A DNA stretch of 64,000 bases, from contig OZ252100.1 of assembly GCA_965248435.1 (NCBI GenBank), forward strand, positions 3,136,001-3,200,000. The letters are read 5' to 3'. Shown in pieces: positions 14,405-28,678 of the stretch. The notes beneath the pieces are model-generated. The model searched no databases. It was given only the letters and a program-made list of their open reading frames with translations, and was not told the DNA's origin. The stretch's first letter is position 1. Every line of letters starts with the position of its first letter. The position numbers were made by a program, and so were the translations under genes. The DNA is from Candidatus Latescibacterota bacterium. Lineage in GTDB: Bacteria; Latescibacterota; UBA2968; GCA-2709665.

Positions 14405-14968
14405 GTGAGCTCGATGCTGAATCAGTGTGCCCCGTTCCAGTTCGGTGCCCCGAACGGAATCCTGACCGGTCGGGAACGGGGTGGAGATCTTCTCGAAGAC
14501 CTGATGGGGCATATGCGGAAGTCGGATTCCGAGGGTGTCGTCCCCCTTGACTTCTCCGGGATCGATTTCATGGACATCTCCTGCGCGGATGAGTTTCTCA
14601 CCAAACTGATCATGCGAATCGGGAGCGGGGAGCTCGGAACGCGGTTTGTGTATATCGAGAATGCGAACGAGTCTGTCCGAGAGACGGTCGAGGCGGTCCT
14701 GAAGCTTCGCGGGCTCGCAGCACTTCTAAAGGAGGGAGACCGGGTCGAGGTCCTGGGCAAGCTCAAGACGCCGATTCGGGAGGCGCTGGACGTGCTGCTG
14801 GAGAAGAAAGAAGGGACGTCTACGGAGCTCGCAGAGGCACTTCGAAAAAACGTGAACATCGCGTGTAATCGTCTGAACGCGCTGCAGCGCATGGGGCTTG
14901 TTTGTCGCGTTAGGGAGGGGAGTGTGCGGGGTGGCGGGCGTCAGTATTTCTACGAGTCGATTCTGTAA
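14405..14968 (+). CDS. STAS-like (DUF4325-like) domain + winged-helix DNA-binding protein
   Basis: N-terminal LTGRERG...VPLDFSGIDFMDISCADEF (STAS-like); C-terminal TSTELAEAL..NIACNRLNALQRMGLV.R..GGRQYFY (wHTH); RBS gaggag. Confidence 0.7.
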   Translation: MSSMLNQCAPFQFGAPNGILTGRERGGDLLEDLMGHMRKSDSEGVVPLDFSGIDFMDISCADEFLTKLIMRIGSGELGTRFVYIENANESVRETVEAVLKLRGLAALLKEGDRVEVLGKLKTPIREALDVLLEKKEGTSTELAEALRKNVNIACNRLNALQRMGLVCRVREGSVRGGGRQYFYESIL

Positions 14969-15033: not shown

Positions 15034-15855
15034 GTGAAATCGCTCGGGACAATCATCTACGTATTCTGCTTCTGTGCAGCCGCACAGGCGGATCCTTTGG
15101 ACATTCTGTTTCCATACGAATGGCACGGCAACATCGACCGGATCGACTTCGAAGAACCTTCGGGAGTCGTCTTTCACGAAAAGCGGGGCACGCTATTCGT
15201 TGTGGGAGACGATGGAGACCTGTTGGAAATCAGAACAGATGGCGCACCGGTCCAGCAGAAGCATCTGCGGGACGCGGACCTGGAGGGAATAACATACGAT
15301 CCCGCAACAAGCCTGCTTTACCTGGCGGTTGAAGGGGAAGAACGGATCCTTGAGGTAGAGCCGGATGATTTCTCCATCCTTCGTGAGTTCACGATTCCGA
15401 GACGGGTGAACGAAAAGACGATGCTCAAGGAGGGTGGTCAGGGGATCGAAGCCATCACATTTGTGCCAAAGCGCGATCATCCCCACGGCGGCACATTCTA
15501 TGTCACCAACCAGTCCTACGACCTGAGCGACCAGGAAGACGTGTCGGCTATTTTCGAAATCGAGGTGCCTCTAAGGAGCACGGACCCTTCCGAAACGGTC
15601 GCGAGACATATTCGTCAGATCGTGCCAATGATACCCGATATGTCCGGCCTCAACTACAGTGCGACATCCAACAGTTTACTTGTCATCAGCGACGCGACAA
15701 ACTGCTTCTTCGAAATCAGTCTGTCCGGCAAGATCAAGGATGCGAAAGCGTTTCCGGGCCAGAACCAGGAAGGGATCGCCTTCGACGACAAAGGGAACAT
15801 CTACGTCGCGCAGGACTCGGGCGGTATCCTAAAAATGCGTTGGAAGTTCGAGTAG
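15034..15855 (+). CDS. Secreted SdiA-regulated/YjiK-like beta-propeller protein
   Basis: Signal peptide; repeated EPSGV, DLEGITY, GIEAIT, DMSGL, QEGIAFD blades. Confidence 0.8.
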   Translation: MKSLGTIIYVFCFCAAAQADPLDILFPYEWHGNIDRIDFEEPSGVVFHEKRGTLFVVGDDGDLLEIRTDGAPVQQKHLRDADLEGITYDPATSLLYLAVEGEERILEVEPDDFSILREFTIPRRVNEKTMLKEGGQGIEAITFVPKRDHPHGGTFYVTNQSYDLSDQEDVSAIFEIEVPLRSTDPSETVARHIRQIVPMIPDMSGLNYSATSNSLLVISDATNCFFEISLSGKIKDAKAFPGQNQEGIAFDDKGNIYVAQDSGGILKMRWKFE

Positions 15856-15885
15856 CCGGTAAACCCGTCGATCGTGAATTGTTCC

Positions 15886-15919
15886 TCGTGTCCTTTCGGA
15901 CACGACAGGATCGTCGTTC
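15886..15919. repeat. 34-nt hairpin repeat, copy 1
   Basis: tcgtgtcctttcggacacgacaggatcgtcgttc, identical to 27913-27946. Confidence 0.9.
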
Positions 15920-15990
15920 GTAAGGGCGGCGACGCAATATTTCTTGTCACTCGACAGATTGAACGCACAAGCTGATTCAGGGCGCGCCAG

Positions 15991-17172
15991 ATGCTGGATT
16001 TCGGATCTCTCAAGCAGCAGATCAACGAGATGGCGGCTGATCGGAAGTCTCTGCAAAGTGACTTTGGGAACCGGGTCGATCTCGCTGTTTCCGAGATGGA
16101 ACGGTGGGAGGATGGCTGGGACATCCTGTCGAACAGGATCGCCTCCAGCCGCACTTCGTGGCTCGTCGCCCGGCCGGGTGGGCCTTTTTCCGAGGTCTAT
16201 CCCCAGCCGGAGCGTCCCGCTGAACTGACGGTGATTGCAGCGGACGGGTCGCAGATCTTTCCGGATCGACACGAGGTGGCCAGCTGCTATCTGATCAACA
16301 TCGGCTCGGTGGCGATCCATTACGGATCAGGCGAGCGCCCCGCGATGGCGAGCCGGCCCACCCTCATCTACAAAGAGGCGGACCTCATACAGGAGTGGGC
16401 GGGGCGGCGCACGACAGTGACTCGGGAGATGGTGGGGGTGAGGCGAGGGGCGATGGAGTTCGATGAAGTGGCCAACCTTGCGGAGGACGCCCGGGCAGAA
16501 GGGAGAACGGTCGTCGGCCTGTCTGACGGGACGCTGATACTCTGGATGCTGGAGGGGAAGCCGAGTCCGATCCGGAGAGAGATCCTGGGCAGCACCCTGT
16601 CTTCGTTCGAACGTATGCGAGGCGCCGGGGTGCCCGTGGCCGGGTACATCAGCCAGCCTGGCAGTGCGGATGTGGTGAACGGCCTGCGCGTGGGCATGTG
16701 CCCTGAACGACCGCCAGATTGTGATCGATGTCCCTGGAAGACGCAAGAGGGGTCCGAGCTACCCTGTGAACCGATCGAGGGCGTCACGGACGGTGTCCTG
16801 TTCAAACGGCTGCTGAAGAAGGGTGAGCGGAGTGCGGTTTTTGGAAGCGCGTCGAAGATCCTTGACGATTACGGGGGACACCGGATATGCTTCTTCTATG
16901 TGAATACCGGCGTGGAGATTGCACGGATCGAAGTTCCGGAATGGGTGGTCGAGGGCCCGGAACTGCTGGATCTGGTCCACGCGACGGTCTGTGACCAGGC
17001 GGAGAAGGGAAACGGCTACCCGGTGGCACTGTCGGAGGCACACGAGCGAGCCGTCGTGCGCGGGACCGACCGGGAGATTTTCTATAAGTTTTTGAGAGAT
17101 GCTTTTGTGGAGCGGGATCTCAAGGCCGAGATTTCGGTGAAGAGTCTGAAGAAGCTTGCGGTATCTGTATGA
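15991..17172 (+). CDS. nurA: DNA double-strand break repair nuclease NurA
   Basis: AADGSQ, DGTL, ARIEVPEW and GYPVALSEAHERAVV motifs; internal C..CxxC..C cluster. Confidence 0.9.
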   Translation: MLDFGSLKQQINEMAADRKSLQSDFGNRVDLAVSEMERWEDGWDILSNRIASSRTSWLVARPGGPFSEVYPQPERPAELTVIAADGSQIFPDRHEVASCYLINIGSVAIHYGSGERPAMASRPTLIYKEADLIQEWAGRRTTVTREMVGVRRGAMEFDEVANLAEDARAEGRTVVGLSDGTLILWMLEGKPSPIRREILGSTLSSFERMRGAGVPVAGYISQPGSADVVNGLRVGMCPERPPDCDRCPWKTQEGSELPCEPIEGVTDGVLFKRLLKKGERSAVFGSASKILDDYGGHRICFFYVNTGVEIARIEVPEWVVEGPELLDLVHATVCDQAEKGNGYPVALSEAHERAVVRGTDREIFYKFLRDAFVERDLKAEISVKSLKKLAVSV

Positions 17173-18146
17173 CACAGTTAGGATTTGACACGTCGACCGA
17201 AAACATAAGAGGGCACTTGAAGTCGGTATTCCTCAGCTATTCTTGGGACTCCGAGGCCCATACAGTATGGGTGGCGCGGCTTGGAGACGCGCTCCGTGGG
17301 GCTGGTCTGGACGTGCGATTGGACCAGGTTGATCTACGCCCCGGTTCCGACCTCACCAAGTATATGGAGACTGCAGTGCGTGAGTCCGACTATGTCTTGC
17401 TGATCTGCACACCGGGATTTGCACAACGCTCTGACGCACGGATCGGCGGCGTGGGGTACGAGCACGGATTGGTCACGGGAGAGATCTTTTCGGGTGTTGC
17501 AGAAACCGAGAAGTTCATCCCCATCCTTCGAGGAGACCCTGCGGAGTCGATCCCGAGCTTCCTGCGAAGTCGCAAGTGGGTTGACTTCCGAGAGGAACCT
17601 ATGTTCGACGCAAGAGTCGCTGAGCTCATCTCCAGTATTTGCCACGGAATCTCCAAATCCGACTTCGGAACGCAGGATCTTGGAGCGACCCACAGGGATG
17701 CGGACATCAACGAGGATCTACGTGTCTACAAGGGAGCGTTCGACTTCGCTTGTACCAAGATGGGTAAGACGAAGAGCTCAGCTGAGGATTTTTCTGAGGA
17801 ATATCAACGGGACTGGTCGCTCGCAGCGCTCAGGGTATTCGAGCAGGTCTTTACATTTGCGAATTCGTCGATGAAGCTGTCGCGGTCTGACGCCGAAGAC
17901 TTCGCGCTGAAGTGGATGGAGCATGACGGCTACGACCATTTCGATCAGTATCGAGATGCGTTCGAGTTCGCGGCATCAAGGGATGGAAGAAATCTTTGTG
18001 CCTCAGAAGCTCGCAGATTCGTTGGGGACTTCGAGGAGGAGGTCGGCCTCGAGCACTTCCACAGATTCAAGCAGGCGTTCCGCATCGCTAGGGACGGAGG
18101 CAGGTCGCGTTCCGACGCTGAGGATTTCGCCTTCGACCAACTGTAG
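17169..18146 (+). CDS. TIR/SEFIR-domain protein with four C-terminal helical repeats
   Basis: VFLSYSWD, LDQVDLRPG.DL..YME, VLLICTP, GGVGYE, KFIPILR, WVDF; repeats begin at aa 184, 221, 258, 297. Confidence 0.88.
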   Translation: MTQLGFDTSTENIRGHLKSVFLSYSWDSEAHTVWVARLGDALRGAGLDVRLDQVDLRPGSDLTKYMETAVRESDYVLLICTPGFAQRSDARIGGVGYEHGLVTGEIFSGVAETEKFIPILRGDPAESIPSFLRSRKWVDFREEPMFDARVAELISSICHGISKSDFGTQDLGATHRDADINEDLRVYKGAFDFACTKMGKTKSSAEDFSEEYQRDWSLAALRVFEQVFTFANSSMKLSRSDAEDFALKWMEHDGYDHFDQYRDAFEFAASRDGRNLCASEARRFVGDFEEEVGLEHFHRFKQAFRIARDGGRSRSDAEDFAFDQL

Positions 18147-18233
18147 AGGTGAAAGGCTAGCTCGCGATTGCTGTAGGCTGACCGCGCAGCAGAATTCGTG
18201 AGACTGATGTATCGCACTAAATGAGGAGGCATC

Positions 18234-19292
18234 GTGATGGAGCCTGTGAGGTTGGGTATCGTTGGCTGTGGCGTGATAGGCACTCAGCATCTGGATCTTG
18301 CAGAAAAGTGTCCTCTGGCTGAGGTGGTCGCGATAGCGGACGTCGTGGAAGACCGGGTTCGTGCCGCCGCAGAGCGATTTGATATATCCACCACATATGA
18401 TAACGGTGACGACTTGATCAATGACGAACAGGTGGATGCCGTGGTCCTCGCAATGCCCGCGGGCTTTCGGACTCCAGTAGCGTTAAAGGTGCTGGAGCGG
18501 AAGAAGCACGTCCTCCTGGAGAAGCCTGTTGCAAGATCTGTTGAGGAAGTGGAGAAAATCATGGCGCTGCAGGGAGACCGCGTGGTCGGCTGCTGCTCAT
18601 CCCGGTTTGTCTTCACCGGCCACGCTGAAGCTGCCACCAGGTGTATCGCGTCGGGAGGTCTGGGGGAGATTCGTATGGTGCGCGTCCGAGGGGTGCAAGG
18701 GGCACCAGAGGCACCGAGGGACAATCCGCCGGCGTGGCGTCAGAACATGGAACAGAATGGCGGTGGGGTCCTCGTAAACGTGGGTATCTACGATCTGGAC
18801 TATATGATGCACGTCACGGGATGGGAGCTAAAGCCGAAGGTAGTGCTGGCCACGTGGTGGCCTGCGGCAGATCCGATGTCGGCTTACGTGGCACCCGACT
18901 CGGATGCCGACTCCCACTGCGTCGGGCTCTTTCTCTGTGAGAGGGGTATCGTGTTCAGCATGGAGCGGGGAGAATTCTGCAGTACGGAGACGGACAACGC
19001 GTGGGAGATCGTCGGTACGGAAGGTACGCTTTATCTACCGGTCCGCCCGCAGAAGGGCATACCGGCTGCGGTGGTCCTGGATCGATTCGTTCCTGGCGAG
19101 GGCGTGGTACGCGAAACGCTGTGGGAGGAGGGTCAGGGGGACGTGGAAAACGATATCCTAAACGATTTTGTCTGCGCCATTCGAGAAGGCAGACAGCCGA
19201 GGACGGACCTGGAACAATCCCTGGTCCTGCAGAAGATGATTGACGCGATTTATGCTTCGGCGAAATTGGGCAAGTCTGTGTCGATATCTTGA
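18234..19292 (+). CDS. Gfo/Idh/MocA family oxidoreductase
   Basis: GIVGCGVIG, KHVLLEKP, GGGVL, GTEG. Confidence 0.9.
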   Translation: MMEPVRLGIVGCGVIGTQHLDLAEKCPLAEVVAIADVVEDRVRAAAERFDISTTYDNGDDLINDEQVDAVVLAMPAGFRTPVALKVLERKKHVLLEKPVARSVEEVEKIMALQGDRVVGCCSSRFVFTGHAEAATRCIASGGLGEIRMVRVRGVQGAPEAPRDNPPAWRQNMEQNGGGVLVNVGIYDLDYMMHVTGWELKPKVVLATWWPAADPMSAYVAPDSDADSHCVGLFLCERGIVFSMERGEFCSTETDNAWEIVGTEGTLYLPVRPQKGIPAAVVLDRFVPGEGVVRETLWEEGQGDVENDILNDFVCAIREGRQPRTDLEQSLVLQKMIDAIYASAKLGKSVSIS

Positions 19293-19391
19293 TTTGGCTT
19301 TTGCCGGAATCGAAAGGCAAAGTCCCAAGAGGCGCGGAGAGCGCAGAGAAAACGAACAATGAAATCGATGATTGAAAGGGGAAAGTGAACC

Positions 19392-20153
19392 ATGAAATTG
19401 TGTTTTATGACGTTTGTCTGTCCCAGTTGGGATCTTGAACGCGTCGTCCAGTTCGCCAAAGAGACGGATTACGACGGAGTGGAGATCAGGGTGGATCTCG
19501 GACACAATCACGGGATCTCGTCTTTGTCCTCAGCCGACGAACGGCGACGTGCAAAGGACCTTTTTGCGGACACGGGGGTGGAGATCCCGTGCGTGGCGAG
19601 CTCGGCACGCCTTTCCAACCCTGACCCCGAGAAACACGCGGAGCACCTCAAAAATGCCAAAGCGGATCTGGATCTGGCGGCCGATCTCGGCGCGCCCATT
19701 GTCAGGATTTTCGCCGGGAAGGAAGTACCCGAACTGACGACGGATGTCGCGATTCAAGTGGCGGCAGCGTTCGACGAACTCGGCGCGTACACCGAAGGCA
19801 CGGGAGTGAGTCCGATGCTCGAGTGTGGGCACGATATCATCATCCCGACGGATAAGGCGGCCGAGATTGTCAATCGCATCACGGGGCCGAATGTGGGTGC
19901 CCTGTGGAACGATTCGAACATGGACGACAAGGCCTACGATCTGCTGAAAGATCGCCTCAGACATTTTCATGTTCACGATGAGGTGCTCGATCCGGAGAAT
20001 ACAAACATCCTGGACCTGGCAAAGCGGATGAAATCTCACGGTTACACGGGCTACGTGTCTCTGGAAATCATCTGGAAAAAGGACATGCCGGAAGATCAGC
20101 TGAGGGAGACGGGGTCGAGGCTCAAGGGGTATATCTCACAGGTCTATGGGTAG
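19392..20153 (+). CDS. Sugar phosphate isomerase/epimerase (xylose isomerase-like TIM barrel)
   Basis: YDGVEIR, VRIFAG, LE.GHD, HFHVHD, GYVSLE. Confidence 0.85.
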   Translation: MKLCFMTFVCPSWDLERVVQFAKETDYDGVEIRVDLGHNHGISSLSSADERRRAKDLFADTGVEIPCVASSARLSNPDPEKHAEHLKNAKADLDLAADLGAPIVRIFAGKEVPELTTDVAIQVAAAFDELGAYTEGTGVSPMLECGHDIIIPTDKAAEIVNRITGPNVGALWNDSNMDDKAYDLLKDRLRHFHVHDEVLDPENTNILDLAKRMKSHGYTGYVSLEIIWKKDMPEDQLRETGSRLKGYISQVYG

Positions 20154-20204
20154 GGTTGGCGGAGAGGAGGCGGTTTCAGTGAAAAACAAGGGAATCGAGA
20201 GAAC

Positions 20205-20792
20205 ATGGATCGCGTGAACTCCACGGAAACGGTCGGCGAAGTGATCGAAAGCAGTACGTCAGAGTTTCTGGCGGAGAGCCGGGAGCTGAACGAAGGACCT
20301 TCGTTCGGGACCTTCGTCAAGACCGGGCCTGAACCTGTGATTTATGGGCTGGTTTTCAACTCCACGACACATTCACTCGAGCCTAACCGAAGGCCCAGGG
20401 CCTATGGAAAGACGGAAGCGGAGCTTCGCCTGGAGCAGCCCCAGATCTTCGAGCTCCTTACGACCGAGTTCGCGGTCGTGGTGATCGGTCACTTGTCCGA
20501 GCGTGGTCCTGAACGCGTTCTGCCTCCCCAGCCACCTCGCATCCACAACTTTGTATATACGTGTGATGAGGCGGAAGTGAAGGCCTTGACCGTTGACGGA
20601 GACTTCGTACGGACGATCTTGGGTCGCCCCGCACTGCCTGCCGATGATCTAATCATCGCGGCCGTGCGAAATGCTTGGCACGCACGCGCCTTCGAGATGC
20701 CTTACATGGTGTCTCTGGGCAAGGACCTTTGTCGGCTCGTTCGAGACGACTATGACCGCCTCAGCTCGATTATGCGGAGGATCTCTTCGTGA
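20205..20792 (+). CDS. HAS-barrel domain protein (NurA/HerA partner)
   Basis: GEVIESSTSEFLAE, PSFGTFVK, EQPQIFELL, LPPQPPRIHNFV, L.DDYDRL; GTGA overlap with herA. Confidence 0.8.
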   Translation: MDRVNSTETVGEVIESSTSEFLAESRELNEGPSFGTFVKTGPEPVIYGLVFNSTTHSLEPNRRPRAYGKTEAELRLEQPQIFELLTTEFAVVVIGHLSERGPERVLPPQPPRIHNFVYTCDEAEVKALTVDGDFVRTILGRPALPADDLIIAAVRNAWHARAFEMPYMVSLGKDLCRLVRDDYDRLSSIMRRISS

Positions 20793-22468
20793 GCAGCGTC
20801 GGGAAACAGGCTACGCCTGAATGGAATGGATCGGGTTCCGGGAATGAGATCGGTGTCATTACGCAGGGCTCGCTGACTGAAGGCGTGGAGATGAAGCTGA
20901 ATCCGGACCGGAGTGTGGAGGATGTGAAGGCGGGCAAGTTCGTGGTGATCGAGGGATTCAAGAACGAATTCTTTTCGATGATTACGGACCTGAGCCTGGA
21001 CGCGACGAACCCAGACATCCTTCTGTATCCGCCGATGGAAGGAGACCGGCTGCTGCACAGCGTGCTGAATGGATCGAGTACCTACGTGACGGTGTCTCTT
21101 CGGCCCATGCTGATGCTCGAGCGAGGCGAGGAGATGGGCGATGAGCCCCGTCCGGTCAAGACGATCCCGAGCCACTTTTCCAGGGTGATCGAGGCGGAGG
21201 AGGAGGATGTCTCCAGGGTGTTCGGGAGCGAGGCGAGGGGCGAGCGATTCTTCAATATGGGTACGCCGCTGGATATGGAGACACCGGTCTGCCTCAACCT
21301 GGACCGCTTTGTGGAGCGGAGCAACGGGATCTTCGGAAAGACAGGAACCGGAAAGTCCTTTTTGACGCGACTCGTCCTGTGTGGAATGATCAAGCAGGAA
21401 CGGGCCGTGAATTTGATTTTCGACATGCACAACGAGTACGGGTTTCAGGCGATGCAGGAGGCCGGGTTGGGCAAGGGAGGATTCGTCAAAGGTCTGAAGC
21501 AGCTTTTCGGGAGCCGCGTGGCGCTGTTCTCTCTTGACCCGGAGTCCACGCGGAAGCGCGGGCAGCAGCCGGATCACGAGGTGACGATCTCCTACGACCA
21601 GATTGCTGTGGAGGACGTGATTGCGCTTCAGGATGAACTGCAGTTGAATCCTACCGCCGCGGAGTCGGCCTATCTGGTCTACGCGATGTATAAACAGCGT
21701 TGGCTGCGGCAGTTGCTGTCGATCGACGGTCCGGATCTCGAGCAGTTTGCGGATGACCTGGGGGCGAACAAAAGCTCACTTTCGGCGCTGCACCGGAAGT
21801 TGAGACGGATCGAGACGTTCCCCTTTACGGTGGACCGGCTGGATGGTCCGGATGCGGTGGATACGATGATGGACTACATCGACCGCGGGATCCACATCGT
21901 TCTGGAGTTCGGACGCCAGACGAGCATGCTGGCCTATCTGCTGGTCGCCAACATCATCTCGCGACGCATCCACGAGAAGTATGTGCAGAAGAGCGAGCAG
22001 TTCTACGCGACACAGGACCCCGCGGACCGACCCCGGCAGCTAGTGATCACGATCGAGGAGGCGCACAAGTTCCTGAACATGACGACGGCCAAGCAGACGA
22101 TTTTCGGGACGATTGCGAGGGAGATGCGGAAGTATTACGTTTCCCTCCTCGTTGTAGATCAGCGCCCATCCGGGATCGACGAGGAGGTGCTGTCCCAGCT
22201 CGGGACGAAGATCACGGCGCTTCTGAACGACGAGAAGGATATTCAGGCGGTGCTGACGGGGATGTCGAACGCATCGGGGCTGAGGAGCGTGCTGGCGAGC
22301 CTGGACTCGAAGCAACAGGCCCTGGTCTTCGGCCACGCCGTACCGATGCCGGTTGTGATCCGCACGCGGGACTATGACGCGGCCTTCTATCGGGCCATGG
22401 GAGACCTGGATGATGAGGAGGTTGTGACCCGCGCGGAGACGGCCTCGGCGGCGGTATTCGGGGACTAG
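20789..22468 (+). CDS. herA: HerA/FtsK-family helicase-ATPase (DUF87)
   Basis: N-terminal HAS barrel, Walker A GKTGTGKS, FDMHNEY, Walker B IEEAHKF, IAREMRKY, DQRPS. Confidence 0.92.
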   Translation: MSSVGKQATPEWNGSGSGNEIGVITQGSLTEGVEMKLNPDRSVEDVKAGKFVVIEGFKNEFFSMITDLSLDATNPDILLYPPMEGDRLLHSVLNGSSTYVTVSLRPMLMLERGEEMGDEPRPVKTIPSHFSRVIEAEEEDVSRVFGSEARGERFFNMGTPLDMETPVCLNLDRFVERSNGIFGKTGTGKSFLTRLVLCGMIKQERAVNLIFDMHNEYGFQAMQEAGLGKGGFVKGLKQLFGSRVALFSLDPESTRKRGQQPDHEVTISYDQIAVEDVIALQDELQLNPTAAESAYLVYAMYKQRWLRQLLSIDGPDLEQFADDLGANKSSLSALHRKLRRIETFPFTVDRLDGPDAVDTMMDYIDRGIHIVLEFGRQTSMLAYLLVANIISRRIHEKYVQKSEQFYATQDPADRPRQLVITIEEAHKFLNMTTAKQTIFGTIAREMRKYYVSLLVVDQRPSGIDEEVLSQLGTKITALLNDEKDIQAVLTGMSNASGLRSVLASLDSKQQALVFGHAVPMPVVIRTRDYDAAFYRAMGDLDDEEVVTRAETASAAVFGD

Positions 22469-22519: not shown

Positions 22520-22864
22520 TCAAGCAGATTCCGGCGAACTGCCGCTCGTATTTTCCTGGATCCAGTCCAGGTAAGGCGGATGGCCCTCGACAATCGGTAG
22601 GGCGGTGATGCCGGGGACTTCGTAGCTGTGGAGCTCGCCGGCGCGTTGGATCAGGGCCTGCAGCTGTGCGCGGGTCGTTTTGAGGAACATCAGGGCTTCA
22701 GGTTCGTCTTCGACCTTGCCCCGCCAGCGGTAGATGGACCGGATTTGGGGAACGATGTTCGCGCAGGCCGCCAGGCGCTCCTCGACGAGGGTTCGACCGA
22801 TTGTAGCAGCTTCGTCTTCCGAGCCGGCAGTGATGAAGACGACGTGGGGTTCGTTTTCAGTCAC
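22520..22864 (-). CDS. cutA: Divalent-cation tolerance protein CutA
   Basis: LVEERLAACANI, SIYRWRG, HSYEVP, YLDWI. Confidence 0.95.
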   Translation of the reverse strand: MTENEPHVVFITAGSEDEAATIGRTLVEERLAACANIVPQIRSIYRWRGKVEDEPEALMFLKTTRAQLQALIQRAGELHSYEVPGITALPIVEGHPPYLDWIQENTSGSSPESA

Positions 22865-23343
22865 GGGATCTCCTTTCGGGCCTTTTCAGCGTGCTCCTTA
22901 ATCTTCTCCAGCCTGCTGTTCATTCGGTTCAGGTGCGTTCCCTGCCAGTAGACCCGGCTGCACTTGGGACACTCGTGAAAGCGCCGCTGGGTCTCGTAAA
23001 CGTAGGGCGGAATTCGGTCTTGAACGGCCTCTGGCTGCACCTGGAGGATGGGCTCGTTACAGACCAGACAGAGGGTGAAGGTCTCACGATCGAGGTTCAA
23101 CCCCAGTGTCTGGACGAGCTGGAACATCTGATCATCCAGGCCGTCGTGGGTGATGAGGAAACTACGCCCGTCGGGGGAACGATCCGCCAAGGGCCTGTCG
23201 CGTGTGAGGAGAACGCGGTCTTCCGTCAGGGCCTGATTCAGGATCGTATCGTCGTCGGCAAGCGGATCGTAGGCGGTGTCATATCCGAGAATTCTGAGCC
23301 ACCGAGCCAACTTGCCGAGCATGCTGTCGGCGACAAACTTCAT
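22861..23343 (-). CDS. Mut7-C RNase (PIN-like) domain protein
   Basis: FVADSMLGKLARWLRILGYD, LLTRD, CLVCN...CPKCSRVYWQGTH. Confidence 0.92.
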   Translation of the reverse strand: MKFVADSMLGKLARWLRILGYDTAYDPLADDDTILNQALTEDRVLLTRDRPLADRSPDGRSFLITHDGLDDQMFQLVQTLGLNLDRETFTLCLVCNEPILQVQPEAVQDRIPPYVYETQRRFHECPKCSRVYWQGTHLNRMNSRLEKIKEHAEKARKEIP

Positions 23344-27871: not shown

Positions 27872-28678
27872 TCAGGACTCCTTTCTCAAATCCGTGGATC
27901 GTGGATCGTGCGTCGTGTCCTTTCGGACACGACAGGATCGTCGTTCATCACCTATTTGTCGGGTCCGAATCGATTGATGTACAGACGCTCGAGCAGCGAG
28001 CTCATCCATAAGGGCGCGCATAGTATTGTTGATTCGTTTGAACCGACCCTCGTCGGACAACATGCTGGTACCTGTTTGGACAAACGGCCCATCACGTTCT
28101 TCATCTGCGCAGTTGTGAATCAGTCGAGCTGCACCCGTTCGCGTCGTTTCAAGATGAAACTGCAGGGCAACTGCTCGATCCTCATAGGCGAAGGCCTGGT
28201 GCTCACAGCAGTCGCTCTTTGCGATGTGAGTGCAGCCTGCGGGGATGTCGAAGGTATCGCCGTGCCAGTGGAAGGCTTCGACCTCGCGAGGAAAGGAACC
28301 GAAGAGCGATGAATCAGATGCAGTCGGGACTTTCTTGACGGGGAACCAGCCGATCTCCTTGTGGGCATTGGGGTATACCTTCGCCCCGAGCACGTCGGCA
28401 AGGAACTGTGCACCGAGACAGACGCCGAGGATCGTCTTGTCTGCCTTCAACGCCTGCTCGATGGCTCGCTTTTCGAGTGAGAGCCAGGGGTAACGGTTTT
28501 CCTCGTAGACGCTCATCGGGCCGCCCATAATGACCAGGCATTCTATGTCTTCAGGGGGTGGTGGAGATTCCTTGGCGAAGAAACGCGTACGGGTGATTTT
28601 GTGGCCGTTTTCCGTCGCCCAGTCTCTGATGCGGCCGAGGTCTTCGAACGGGACGTGCTGAAAATAGTGCAAGTTCAC
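27872..28678 (-). CDS. Type 1 glutamine amidotransferase (GMP synthase-like GATase)
   Basis: QHVPFE, MGGPMSV, GVCLGAQ, HWHGDTF, QFHLE; C-terminal tail runs through a repeat element. Confidence 0.92.
   Translation of the reverse strand: MNLHYFQHVPFEDLGRIRDWATENGHKITRTRFFAKESPPPPEDIECLVIMGGPMSVYEENRYPWLSLEKRAIEQALKADKTILGVCLGAQFLADVLGAKVYPNAHKEIGWFPVKKVPTASDSSLFGSFPREVEAFHWHGDTFDIPAGCTHIAKSDCCEHQAFAYEDRAVALQFHLETTRTGAARLIHNCADEERDGPFVQTGTSMLSDEGRFKRINNTMRALMDELAARASVHQSIRTRQIGDERRSCRVRKDTTHDPRSTDLRKES
27913..27946. repeat. 34-nt hairpin repeat, copy 2 (inside GATase 3' end)
   Basis: Identical to 15886-15919. Confidence 0.9.

Follow-up and report, generated by a model that had tools for sequence, protein, structure and literature searches.

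A mobile single-gene SEFIR insertion very probably split an old NurA-HerA operon in one marine strain of Latescibacterota, and no partnership between the inserted gene and the operon is indicated. The window (the whole stretch of 64,000 nucleotides analyzed here) had been flagged in a preliminary description for a TIR gene at the end of nurA, with two readings offered: recruitment of a TIR effector to guard or sense the NurA-HerA end-processing machine, or independent insertion of a defense gene at the nurA 3′ end. The latter is strongly supported, as the gene is strain specific, is closest to foreign homologues, and is absent from a 98–99% identical population. The main outcome is that a false lead is cleared, in that a TIR-type gene seemingly coupled to nurA appears to be a strain-level accessory insertion.

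Architecture and ancestry of the operon

Pfam identities bear out the gene order described for positions 15991–22468, all on the forward strand: nurA, a TIR-like (SEFIR) gene, a Gfo/Idh/MocA gene, a xylose-isomerase-like gene, a stand-alone HAS-barrel gene, and herA. The nurA gene (15991..17172; 393 aa; Pfam NurA PF09376, 3.1e-31) is intact and has its native C-terminus (...SLKKLAVSV*), which is conserved in orthologues. The SEFIR gene (17169..18146) encodes 325 aa if read from ATG or 309 aa if read from a TTG at 17217. It is followed by the Gfo/Idh/MocA oxidoreductase gene (18234..19292; Pfam GFO_IDH_MocA) and a gene for a xylose-isomerase-like TIM barrel of the "sugar isomerase/epimerase" family (19392..20153; PF01261, 1.7e-24), the product of which has a weak match to the NCBIfam IolO epimerase model. 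The Pfam score of the 195-aa HAS-barrel protein (20205..20792; 9.3e-5) is below the Pfam cut-off, but its orthologues in all of the relatives are 64–76% identical to it. The 559-aa HerA (20789..22468) combines a HAS-barrel (PF09378, 2.1e-7) and a DUF87 ATPase domain (PF01935, 4.3e-32). Both reported gene overlaps are present, ATGA at 17169–17172 between nurA and the SEFIR gene and GTGA at 20789–20792, where the GTG start of herA, preceded 9 nt upstream by GGAGG, overlaps the stop of the HAS-barrel gene. Three genes and 3.0 kb separate nurA from the HAS-barrel gene, and the SEFIR gene is 2.6 kb from herA with the two metabolic genes in between. All of the inserted genes point the same way as the operon and are packed closely against its genes, and no terminator-like site was found from nurA to the end of herA, so the SEFIR gene may be co-transcribed with nurA and herA.

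Across relatives, gene order is conserved. A regulator-like gene, nurA, the HAS-barrel gene, and herA occur in the same succession in all 14 relatives, and the HAS-barrel gene directly precedes herA in 13 of them (about 0.8 kb lies between the two in L043). Relatives have a herA that is 84–89% identical to that of the window. NurA orthologues are 58–77% identical and present in 23 of 40 related genomes, including 5 of 21 from the same family, much of which is missing the operon. Among the 57 of 80 NurA loci with both nurA and the HAS-barrel gene located, these genes are separated by 160 nt or less in 45 and by more in 12, 11 of which belong to one clade that has a methyltransferase or HicB-like gene in common. 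Members of this clade, from another family, have N6_N4 and D12 methyltransferases and HicA/HicB-like genes at the junction, as well as a putative restriction enzyme or His-Me-finger restriction endonuclease. In one more genome, the same junction holds an enolase-superfamily gene, and all of the cargo ORFs are co-oriented with nurA. Judged from gene order and identity, this is a Latescibacterota operon of long standing that has been passed on vertically (regulator-like gene, nurA, HAS-barrel gene, and herA). It is interrupted in the window, where the genes are members by descent. By gene content, the four-gene operon is of the NurA-HerA DNA-end-processing type, a putative function; Deinococcus and Thermus have bacterial examples of HerA-NurA. 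Like the HerA-NurA pair of Thermococcus kodakarensis (PMC12977600), the locus encodes a nuclease domain of NurA type and a HerA with HAS-barrel and ATPase, and in the relatives both are encoded by one operon. Unlike that pair, the Latescibacterota operon adds a regulator-like gene and a stand-alone HAS-barrel gene, and is here split by cargo.

The two metabolic genes had been taken as making a simple insertion plausible, but they are not co-arrivals with the TIR-type gene. Orthologues of the Gfo and adjoining isomerase genes in the sister species G001 are 81% and 85% identical, respectively, and the pair is also present in a contig lacking the SEFIR gene. In G001, the Gfo gene is flanked by M81 peptidase and CutA/Mut7-C genes, and neither nurA nor herA is present there. 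From these comparisons, this place in the chromosome is where the genus natively carries the pair.

Strain-level variation at the nurA junction

Presence of the SEFIR gene varies between near-identical strains. A 2,860-nt contig (depth 9.3) from an independent seawater metagenome (X5) matches the window at 16486–17170 with 6 differences and at 18218–20195 with 40 differences, such that the flanks are 98–99% identical. Between nurA and the Gfo gene, this contig has 197 other bases where the window has the 1047-nt inserted or replaced segment that bears the SEFIR gene (17171..18217). The X5 strain keeps nurA, the Gfo and isomerase genes, and the HAS-barrel gene. This SEFIR-less form is represented by that one contig, and a contig may be a chimera; the sole additional hint comes from run X7, in which a 371-nt contig ceases to match at 17170. 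Similarity to G001 also begins at 18218. Terminal direct or inverted repeats were not found for the segment. A contig from the source sample covers 15892–21000 with 0 differences, so the SEFIR junction is not a misassembly. Together, the two forms offer a clean natural comparison, with and without a SEFIR gene, within a marine phylum that is uncultured.

Translational coupling of the gene to nurA had been proposed. The 4-nt ATGA overlap stands, but coupling itself is not established, given the location of the breakpoint and the evidence for a TTG start. The overlapping ATG is composed of the last codon (GTA) and the TGA stop of nurA, and nurA ends in GTA in 11 of 14 relatives, two of which carry GTATGA. 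The match to the X5 strain ends at 17170|17171, within the ATGA, which argues that the "coupled" ATG is a product of the junction. No SD-like motif is upstream of the ATG at 17169. Conversely, AAGAGGG (17207–17213) is upstream of the in-frame TTG at 17217, seven of ten full-length homologues start 1–4 residues from the TTG position, and the AF2 model shows residues 1–15 of the long form as disordered. We suggest that the SEFIR gene probably starts at the TTG, with its own ribosome-binding motif. Because the long ORF overlaps the nurA stop by 4 nt, coupling by reinitiation is possible. More generally, an insertion junction can by itself give rise to a 4-nt ATGA overlap, and such overlaps are not to be taken as evidence of partnership.

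Domains and distribution of the SEFIR protein

The gene is TIR-like, but bacterial SEFIR is the more exact label, consistent with PADLOC bSEFIR and PDB 5Y8F. The protein has a SEFIR domain (residues 19–158), a disordered linker (160–180), and four helical-hairpin repeats (178–325). The PADLOC screen that had been suggested for this gene yields bSEFIR (PDLC03957; 3.6e-51, 173 bits) across residues 18–175, corresponding to model positions 39–195 of 412 only; positions 196–412 have no alignment to the protein. The Bacillus cereus SEFIR crystal structures 5Y8E/5Y8F, which are entries of an isolated domain and 31–34% identical to the protein, are the best match in both sequence, including the GGVG-x-E motif, and fold. 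A PDB sequence search scored 5Y8F at 70.9 bits (1.1e-18, residues 19–142) versus 23.2 bits for the best TIR. Foldseek ranked 5Y8E/5Y8F first (E 6e-7 and 1.3e-6; TM to target 0.74–0.77), followed by SPARTA and SARM1 TIR domains. Millman et al. (2022, 10.1101/2022.05.11.491447) describe a selection rule in which a SEFIR match must exceed a TIR match by HHsearch against PDB and Pfam. Here, PDB sequences and fold favor SEFIR whereas Pfam HMMs favor TIR_2 (4.6e-19, 69.5 bits, over 2.9e-10, 41 bits for SEFIR), and the rule itself is based on HHsearch.

The C-terminal half differs from that of the validated bSEFIR protein. No family was found for the four-repeat domain in Pfam, PADLOC, or Atlas, but it is modelled with a pLDDT of about 95 (AF2) and its units are mutually alike (z of 5–11 in five of six pairs). 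This distinct C-terminal domain of four repeats sets the proteins apart as a subfamily within SEFIR and is a candidate sensor.

Distribution of the gene does not follow that of the operon. The SEFIR gene was not found in any of the 21 same-family genomes, and of 19 genomes from the other family, 7 have matches, to the SEFIR domain only (27–40% identity), which are >1 Mb from nurA where both are on one contig. Full-length homologues reach at most 51–59% identity with 95–97% coverage, all in metagenome assemblies; the best genomic homologues are in a Gemmatimonadaceae MAG (58%) and a Longimicrobiales MAG (42%), making Gemmatimonadota the closest. GC3 of the gene is 0.653, versus 0.73 for nurA and 0.80 for herA. 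In 11 loci, neighbors of homologues include genes for HNH, AAA_13, ParE/antitoxin, TumE, HepT/MNT, Mrr, PIN, and OLD/AAA_15, as well as transposases and prophage genes, and none encode NurA or HerA. The neighbors of the SEFIR gene in the window, namely NurA/HerA and metabolic genes, are unlike these defense and mobile surroundings. On this evidence, the SEFIR gene is accessory, horizontally acquired, and of foreign origin.

The guard or sense reading fails on its comparative side. A survey of genes 3′ of nurA for recurring TIR genes, as the preliminary description recommended, found a SEFIR homologue in 0 of 80 loci with NurA orthologues. Reciprocally, tblastn matches to NurA, HAS-barrel, or HerA were found in 0 of 45 and 0 of 67 SEFIR-homologue loci, and none of 5,733 ORFs from these 112 loci matched a NurA or HerA profile. 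Effector and HerA are thus not co-inherited.

Competing explanations and predicted function

SEFIR genes have precedents as stand-alone defenses. The bSEFIR of Bacillus sp. NIO-1130 is a known single-gene anti-phage system (10.1101/2022.05.11.491447), and NAD+ depletion by a SEFIR domain is described for a Bacillus protein (10.1101/2024.02.11.579819). Like bSEFIR, the gene in the window is stand-alone and encodes an N-terminal SEFIR domain, and its homologues are among toxin-antitoxin, restriction, and defense genes; it is unlike bSEFIR in the four-unit helical repeat of its C-terminal half and in its host, an uncultured marine Latescibacterota. By analogy, its expected output is NAD+ depletion via the SEFIR domain. 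Judged by sequence, the insertion is an ordinary one, of a known single-gene defense type and not a repair-coupled module.

The least probable explanation is repair-coupled immunity, in which a SEFIR NADase would guard or read out NurA-HerA and be held at a fixed ratio to NurA via the ATGA. It draws on analogy to Sir2-HerA and DUF4297-HerA, in which HerA ATPases are described as partnering NADase or nuclease effectors (PMC11472057, PMC11514289, PMC11291478), and the locus resembles these systems in having a HerA-family ATPase and an effector of NAD-consuming type in one neighborhood. The 4-nt overlap, the shared orientation with no terminator-like site through herA, and a C-terminal repeat domain that has no assigned ligand, leaving room for a cue from the host machine, are also compatible with it. 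However, effector and herA are described as an obligate co-inherited pair in those systems, whereas the SEFIR gene and herA are together in a single strain, 2.6 kb apart and across two metabolic genes, and a 98–99% identical strain keeps the neighboring genes without SEFIR. The overlapping ATG straddles the breakpoint, the TTG with its SD-like motif suits the starts of homologues, and bSEFIR functions as a single gene. HerA here is also unlike those partners, being the conserved orthologue that accompanies NurA. Its score is 86.5 bits for NCBIfam HerA_antiphage (cut-off of 800) and 70.1 bits for HerA_antiphage_2 (cut-off of 850). It is equally far under the cut-offs of the repair HerA models, and matches PADLOC HerA models up to 4.5e-37 but only in part. 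A full-text phrase search found no TIR-HerA or SEFIR-HerA system in the collection of papers covered.

A landing pad, with the nurA/HAS junction as a selected site recurrently taking co-oriented defense cargo expressed from the promoter and regulator of a break-processing operon, is unlikely but deserves more weight. If true, immunity genes would be turned on at the same time as the end-processing machine, and no partnership between the proteins would be needed. Consistent with this, one junction has received independent cargo (SEFIR, Gfo/isomerase, methyltransferase/restriction/HicAB-like, and enolase-superfamily genes), always in the orientation of nurA, and a fifth or so of gaps (12 of 57) are enlarged. 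Nonetheless, the clade and gene shared by 11 of these 12 suggest that they may be the decay of a single ancestral event, cargo is metabolic rather than defensive in two of about four events, an insert is lacking in 45 of 57 loci, and a search for an integrase, attachment site, or flanking repeat found none. It is very doubtful that the SEFIR gene is instead a decaying or silent remnant without present function. The gene is alone (the other 52 ORFs in the window have generic ATPase-type PADLOC matches only, none model-specific), a TTG start would be weak, and a related Longimicrobiales copy is cut to 128 aa beside transposases. But the ORF is full-length relative to homologues, has no frameshift or internal stop, encodes two confidently modelled domains (AF2), and has all 32 invariant family positions (by definition), including the GGVGYE motif.

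We favor insertion of a self-sufficient gene, and the history of the locus probably involved two events. In an older one, the Gfo/Idh/MocA and isomerase pair would have been captured between nurA and the HAS-barrel gene, as the pair is common to the sister species and the near-identical strain. More recently, one strain would have gained the 1047-nt segment with one horizontally acquired, bacterial SEFIR-type gene, possibly also read through from the operon promoter. The SEFIR protein is predicted to act alone. Its four-repeat domain may sense a phage cue or hold the protein inactive; activation would lead to SEFIR-SEFIR assembly, hydrolysis of NAD+ by the N-terminal domain, and abortion of the infection. 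NurA and HerA would be bystanders, the junction of which tolerated an insertion.

Features upstream of nurA

The first gene of the conserved operon (14405..14968; forward strand; 187 aa) is directly upstream of nurA in all 14 relatives, with 61–79% identity. Its product has no match to a Pfam family and weak matches to NCBIfam Sta1/Lrs14 HTH models (27 and 23 bits, far under the cut-offs), and its C-terminal part resembles a winged helix-turn-helix. By sequence resemblance, it is likely the regulator of the operon. Between this gene and nurA is a lineage-specific insert, a 273-aa SdiA-regulated/phytase-like beta-propeller gene (15034..15855; forward strand; PF06977, 8e-14; PF13449, 1.5e-13), which was not found at the corresponding position in the 14 relatives nor in the 80 NurA loci. 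Its GC content (0.539) is under that of its neighbors, and a 214-nt contig of run X7 spans 15500–15713 with 5 differences. The spacer before nurA has a multi-copy, REP-like hairpin element (15873..15921), identified by depth and copy count. Depth in run X1 is 239 versus 38 alongside, many contig ends fall there, and the 18-nt hairpin core has 6 exact copies in the genome and 21 with two or fewer mismatches, versus 1 for a reversed control pattern.

Organization of the locus and identity of the SEFIR protein

Eight genes are arranged on the forward strand of the locus. A gene encoding a 187-aa protein without a Pfam family in a Pfam scan (14405-14968) and an SdiA-regulated/phytase-like gene (15034-15855) precede nurA (15991-17172; PF09376, 3.1e-31), followed by a gene with a Pfam match to TIR_2/SEFIR (17169-18146), a Gfo/Idh/MocA oxidoreductase gene (18234-19292), a xylose-isomerase-like TIM-barrel gene (19392-20153), a stand-alone HAS-barrel gene (20205-20792), and herA (20789-22468; DUF87, 4.3e-32, plus a HAS-barrel). 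The gene order of the preliminary description, and its overlaps of nurA with the downstream gene and of the HAS-barrel gene with herA, are borne out by the sequence, with 4-nt overlaps at 17169-17172 (ATGA) and 20789-20792 (GTGA). A promoter/terminator scan, in which counts were below shuffle expectation, found no terminator-like sites from nurA to the end of herA. Directly past herA, on the minus strand, are CutA-like (114 aa) and Mut7-C RNase (160 aa) genes (22520-23343) that overlap each other by 4 nt and are kept in the sister species. A hairpin element at 15873-15921 (7-nt stems, 4-nt loop), with a second copy near 27914, belongs to a family of REP-like repeats of this Latescibacterota genome; there are six exact copies and 21 at two or fewer mismatches, and contig depth at the element is ∼6 times that of its flanks.

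The gene between nurA and the oxidoreductase gene, originally described as a TIR gene, indeed matches TIR_2/SEFIR but is more exactly a bacterial SEFIR gene. It matches the PADLOC bSEFIR model at 3.6e-51, with only model positions 39-195 of 412 aligned. The nearest solved structures are those of the Bacillus cereus SEFIR domain (5Y8F and 5Y8E; 1e-18 across residues 19-142), with which the protein has a GGVG-x-E motif in common. An AlphaFold2 model from a 13-sequence alignment (mean pLDDT of 80) has a SEFIR fold at residues 19-158, disorder at residues 1-15 and in a linker at 160-180, and an all-helical C-terminal part at residues 178-324 (pLDDT about 95). Foldseek ranks 5Y8E and 5Y8F at the top, followed by the TIR NADase domains of SPARTA and SARM1. 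The helical domain is built from four hairpin units in tandem, each 33-39 residues long (pairwise z of 5-11 in five of six pairs) and has no assignment in Pfam, PADLOC, or ESM Atlas, the last yielding no usable match. Homologues that share the two-domain plan over their full length come from metagenome assemblies (51-59% identity). A homologue in Longimicrobiales (locus L064, 8001-8351) is 68% identical across residues 11-127, is shortened to 128 aa, and sits between Mutator-family and rve transposase genes.

One gene from Bacillus sp. NIO-1130, which encodes a SEFIR protein, is reported to protect B. subtilis on its own, a protection abolished by mutation of a SEFIR-SEFIR contact residue, and SEFIR genes are reported to be enriched in defence islands (10.1101/2022.05.11.491447). 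The protein in the window may act likewise, in which case its four-repeat domain would be a sensing or autoinhibitory part. By analogy with TIR NADases, the Glu that is invariant in the GGVGYE motif is probably catalytic.

Acquisition of the SEFIR gene

Two explanations had been offered for the SEFIR gene: an effector that guards or senses NurA-HerA, or an independent insertion of a defence gene at the 3' end of nurA. The guard role, although biochemically conceivable, fails every comparative test that was run. The SEFIR protein has no match in the 21 genomes of the same family, and in the other family examined, seven of 19 genomes match it in the SEFIR domain only (27-40% identity), more than 1 megabase from nurA wherever both are on one contig. 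None of 80 NurA-orthologue loci, which come partly from the same genomes as 14 relatives compared in detail, has a SEFIR homologue within the inspected distance of up to 9 kb per side. Conversely, none of 112 SEFIR-homologue loci (seven from relatives, 38 from genome contigs, and 67 from metagenome contigs, only 25 of the last being at least 4 kb) matches the window's NurA, HAS, HerA, Gfo, or isomerase in tblastn at E ≤ 0.01. None of their 5733 stop-to-stop ORFs matches NurA or HerA orthologue profiles at E ≤ 1, the profiles detecting only this NurA/HerA subfamily. Among 63 Pfam-scanned neighbour ORFs from 11 of the 112 loci are HNH, AAA_13, ParE plus antitoxin, TumE, HepT/MNT, Mrr, PIN, an OLD-family AAA_15/TOPRIM nuclease, transposases, and prophage genes, and none is NurA, HerA, or HAS-barrel. 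No TIR-HerA or SEFIR-HerA system is named in the literature searched. Complex prediction for NurA (alignment A2) and SEFIR (alignment A1) scored 0.01 against a mark of 0.32 and returned no answer either way.

Independent insertion, on the other hand, can be read at the level of strains. Public contigs were compared across 15500-21000; according to their labels, the runs that contain parts of the window are seawater or marine metagenomes. The probable source sample of the window has a contig covering 15892-21000 with no differences, which shows that the junction did not arise in assembly. In a contig of an independent seawater metagenome from another study (X5; 2860 nt, depth of 9.3), 16486-17170 is matched with six differences and 18218-20195 with 40, and 197 other letters replace 17171-18217. 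This joint therefore represents a population, 98-99% identical in the flanks, with nurA, a spacer, and the Gfo gene but without SEFIR. The match of a 371-nt contig from a third study (X7) also ends at 17170, followed by 10 unlike letters. Similarity to the sister species (G001) likewise starts at 18218, the right breakpoint. A joint in another metagenome run, X6 (17153 to 20232; side 23, less than 95% alike), probably derives from a more distant relative and was set aside, and gaps in the coverage of X6 and X7 were not counted as absence of sequence. No terminal repeats or target-site duplication were found around 17171-18217. GC3 is 0.653 in the SEFIR gene, 0.73 in nurA, and 0.80 in herA, and the nearest genomic homologues of the SEFIR gene are in Gemmatimonadota MAGs (58% and 42%). 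The SEFIR gene is an independently acquired, strain-specific defence gene of known kind.

The location of the left breakpoint bears on the translational coupling to nurA that had been proposed, which is most likely an accident of the insertion junction. The 3' end of nurA reads GTA TGA, and the ATG consists of the A of the last Val codon and the TG of the stop. In 11 of 14 relatives, nurA ends in GTA, and the stop is mostly TAG or TAA; GTATGA is present in two cargo-bearing relatives, whose cargo plainly begins further on. The match of the X5 strain ends after the T of the nurA stop codon. The G of the ATG is part of the inserted segment; therefore, the ATGA overlap is a product of the junction. 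No SD-like motif is upstream of this ATG (17169), which straddles the breakpoint, and most neighbouring genes do have one. AAGAGGG (17207-17213) is upstream of an in-frame TTG at 17217, and seven of 10 full-length homologues start one to four residues from that position. Because of the junction-made ATG, the SD-like motif, and the homologue starts, we think that the TTG is the native start. Use of the ATG through reinitiation is possible but unsupported.

History of the NurA-HerA operon and its junctions

NurA orthologues (58-77% identity) are present in 23 of 40 related genomes, the window's own family contributing five of 21 genomes and the other family 18 of 19. In all 14 relatives examined, the gene of the 187-aa protein, nurA, the HAS gene, and herA are in the same order and orientation, and HerA is 84-89% identical to that of the window. 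Across the 57 of the 80 NurA loci in which nurA and HAS could both be placed, the two genes are separated by ≤160 nt in 45 and by >160 nt in 12. Because the gene order is shared by all 14 relatives and the gap is short in these 45 loci, the 3.0-kb, three-gene gap in the window is derived. The head of the operon is always a strongly conserved 185-230-aa protein (14405-14968 and orthologues in loci L035-L048 and L087-L166), which lacks a Pfam family and whose C-terminus gives no more than a weak winged-HTH (Sta1/Lrs14-like) signal; it is a candidate for a regulator dedicated to bacterial NurA-HerA operons. The stand-alone HAS-barrel protein (20205-20792; about 195 aa) is kept between nurA and herA in several phyla, even as HerA has a HAS-barrel of its own.

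Gain of the Gfo/isomerase pair is a separate and older event than gain of SEFIR. In the sister species, which belongs to the same genus, genes follow the order of the window, namely M81 peptidase, Gfo (81%), isomerase (85%), CutA, Mut7-C, and a beta-lactamase-like gene, and the 187-aa gene, SdiA-like gene, nurA, SEFIR, HAS, and herA are all absent. Both halves of the split operon are hence gone and the pair between them is kept (L174/L175). A single three-gene cassette of SEFIR, Gfo, and isomerase is ruled out by occurrence of the pair without SEFIR in the sister species and the X5 strain. In more distant relatives, the operon is at the same chromosomal position, with M81 upstream in one and Mut7-C and the beta-lactamase-like gene downstream in others. 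In the simplest history, the ancestor of the genus would have received the pair at the nurA/HAS junction, and both operon halves would later have been lost from the sister species. Scars of deletion are unreadable against the sister species because similarity of its intergenic DNA is lost at the M81 stop and no more than about 16 nt from the Gfo start; a 41-nt match just 3' of herA (E of 0.002) is too weak for use. NurA has no match in the 15 searched genomes of a neighbouring genus. Given this result and the loss in the sister species, the NurA-HerA operon appears to be dispensable and repeatedly lost in the window's family.

Cargo at the nurA/HAS junction, all co-oriented with the operon, suggests that the site is tolerant of, or possibly favoured for, insertion. 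The gap in one clade of the other family holds N6_N4 and D12 methyltransferase genes, HicA-like and HicB-like (UPF0150) genes, and a gene for a 290-aa putative restriction enzyme or His-Me-finger restriction endonuclease, in various states of loss; six loci have a gap of about 520-550 nt, and the one checked (L048) has only the HicB-like gene. An enolase-superfamily gene occupies the gap of one further genome. Against a favoured junction, most enlarged gaps trace to one clade, half of the events are metabolic, and 45 of 57 loci are uninterrupted. Restriction-modification cassettes in graded decay occupy this gap in one Latescibacterota genus (L040 in genome G026, L042 in G034, L043 in G022, L041, and L048), with either two methyltransferases and a putative endonuclease or a His-Me-finger/SH3 restriction endonuclease, plus HicA/HicB-like genes. 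The junction 5' of nurA is variable as well, with a 740-917-nt gap between the first operon gene and nurA in some loci (L092, L095-L097, L100, L101, L134, L137, L147, L148, L155, L156, L158, and L162). The genes located there encode about 150-260 aa and differ by lineage. L101, L134, and L155, for example, encode a protein of 240-256 aa that is predicted to be secreted, and other ORFs are present in L092, L095, and L096. In the window, this place is taken by the SdiA-regulated-like gene.
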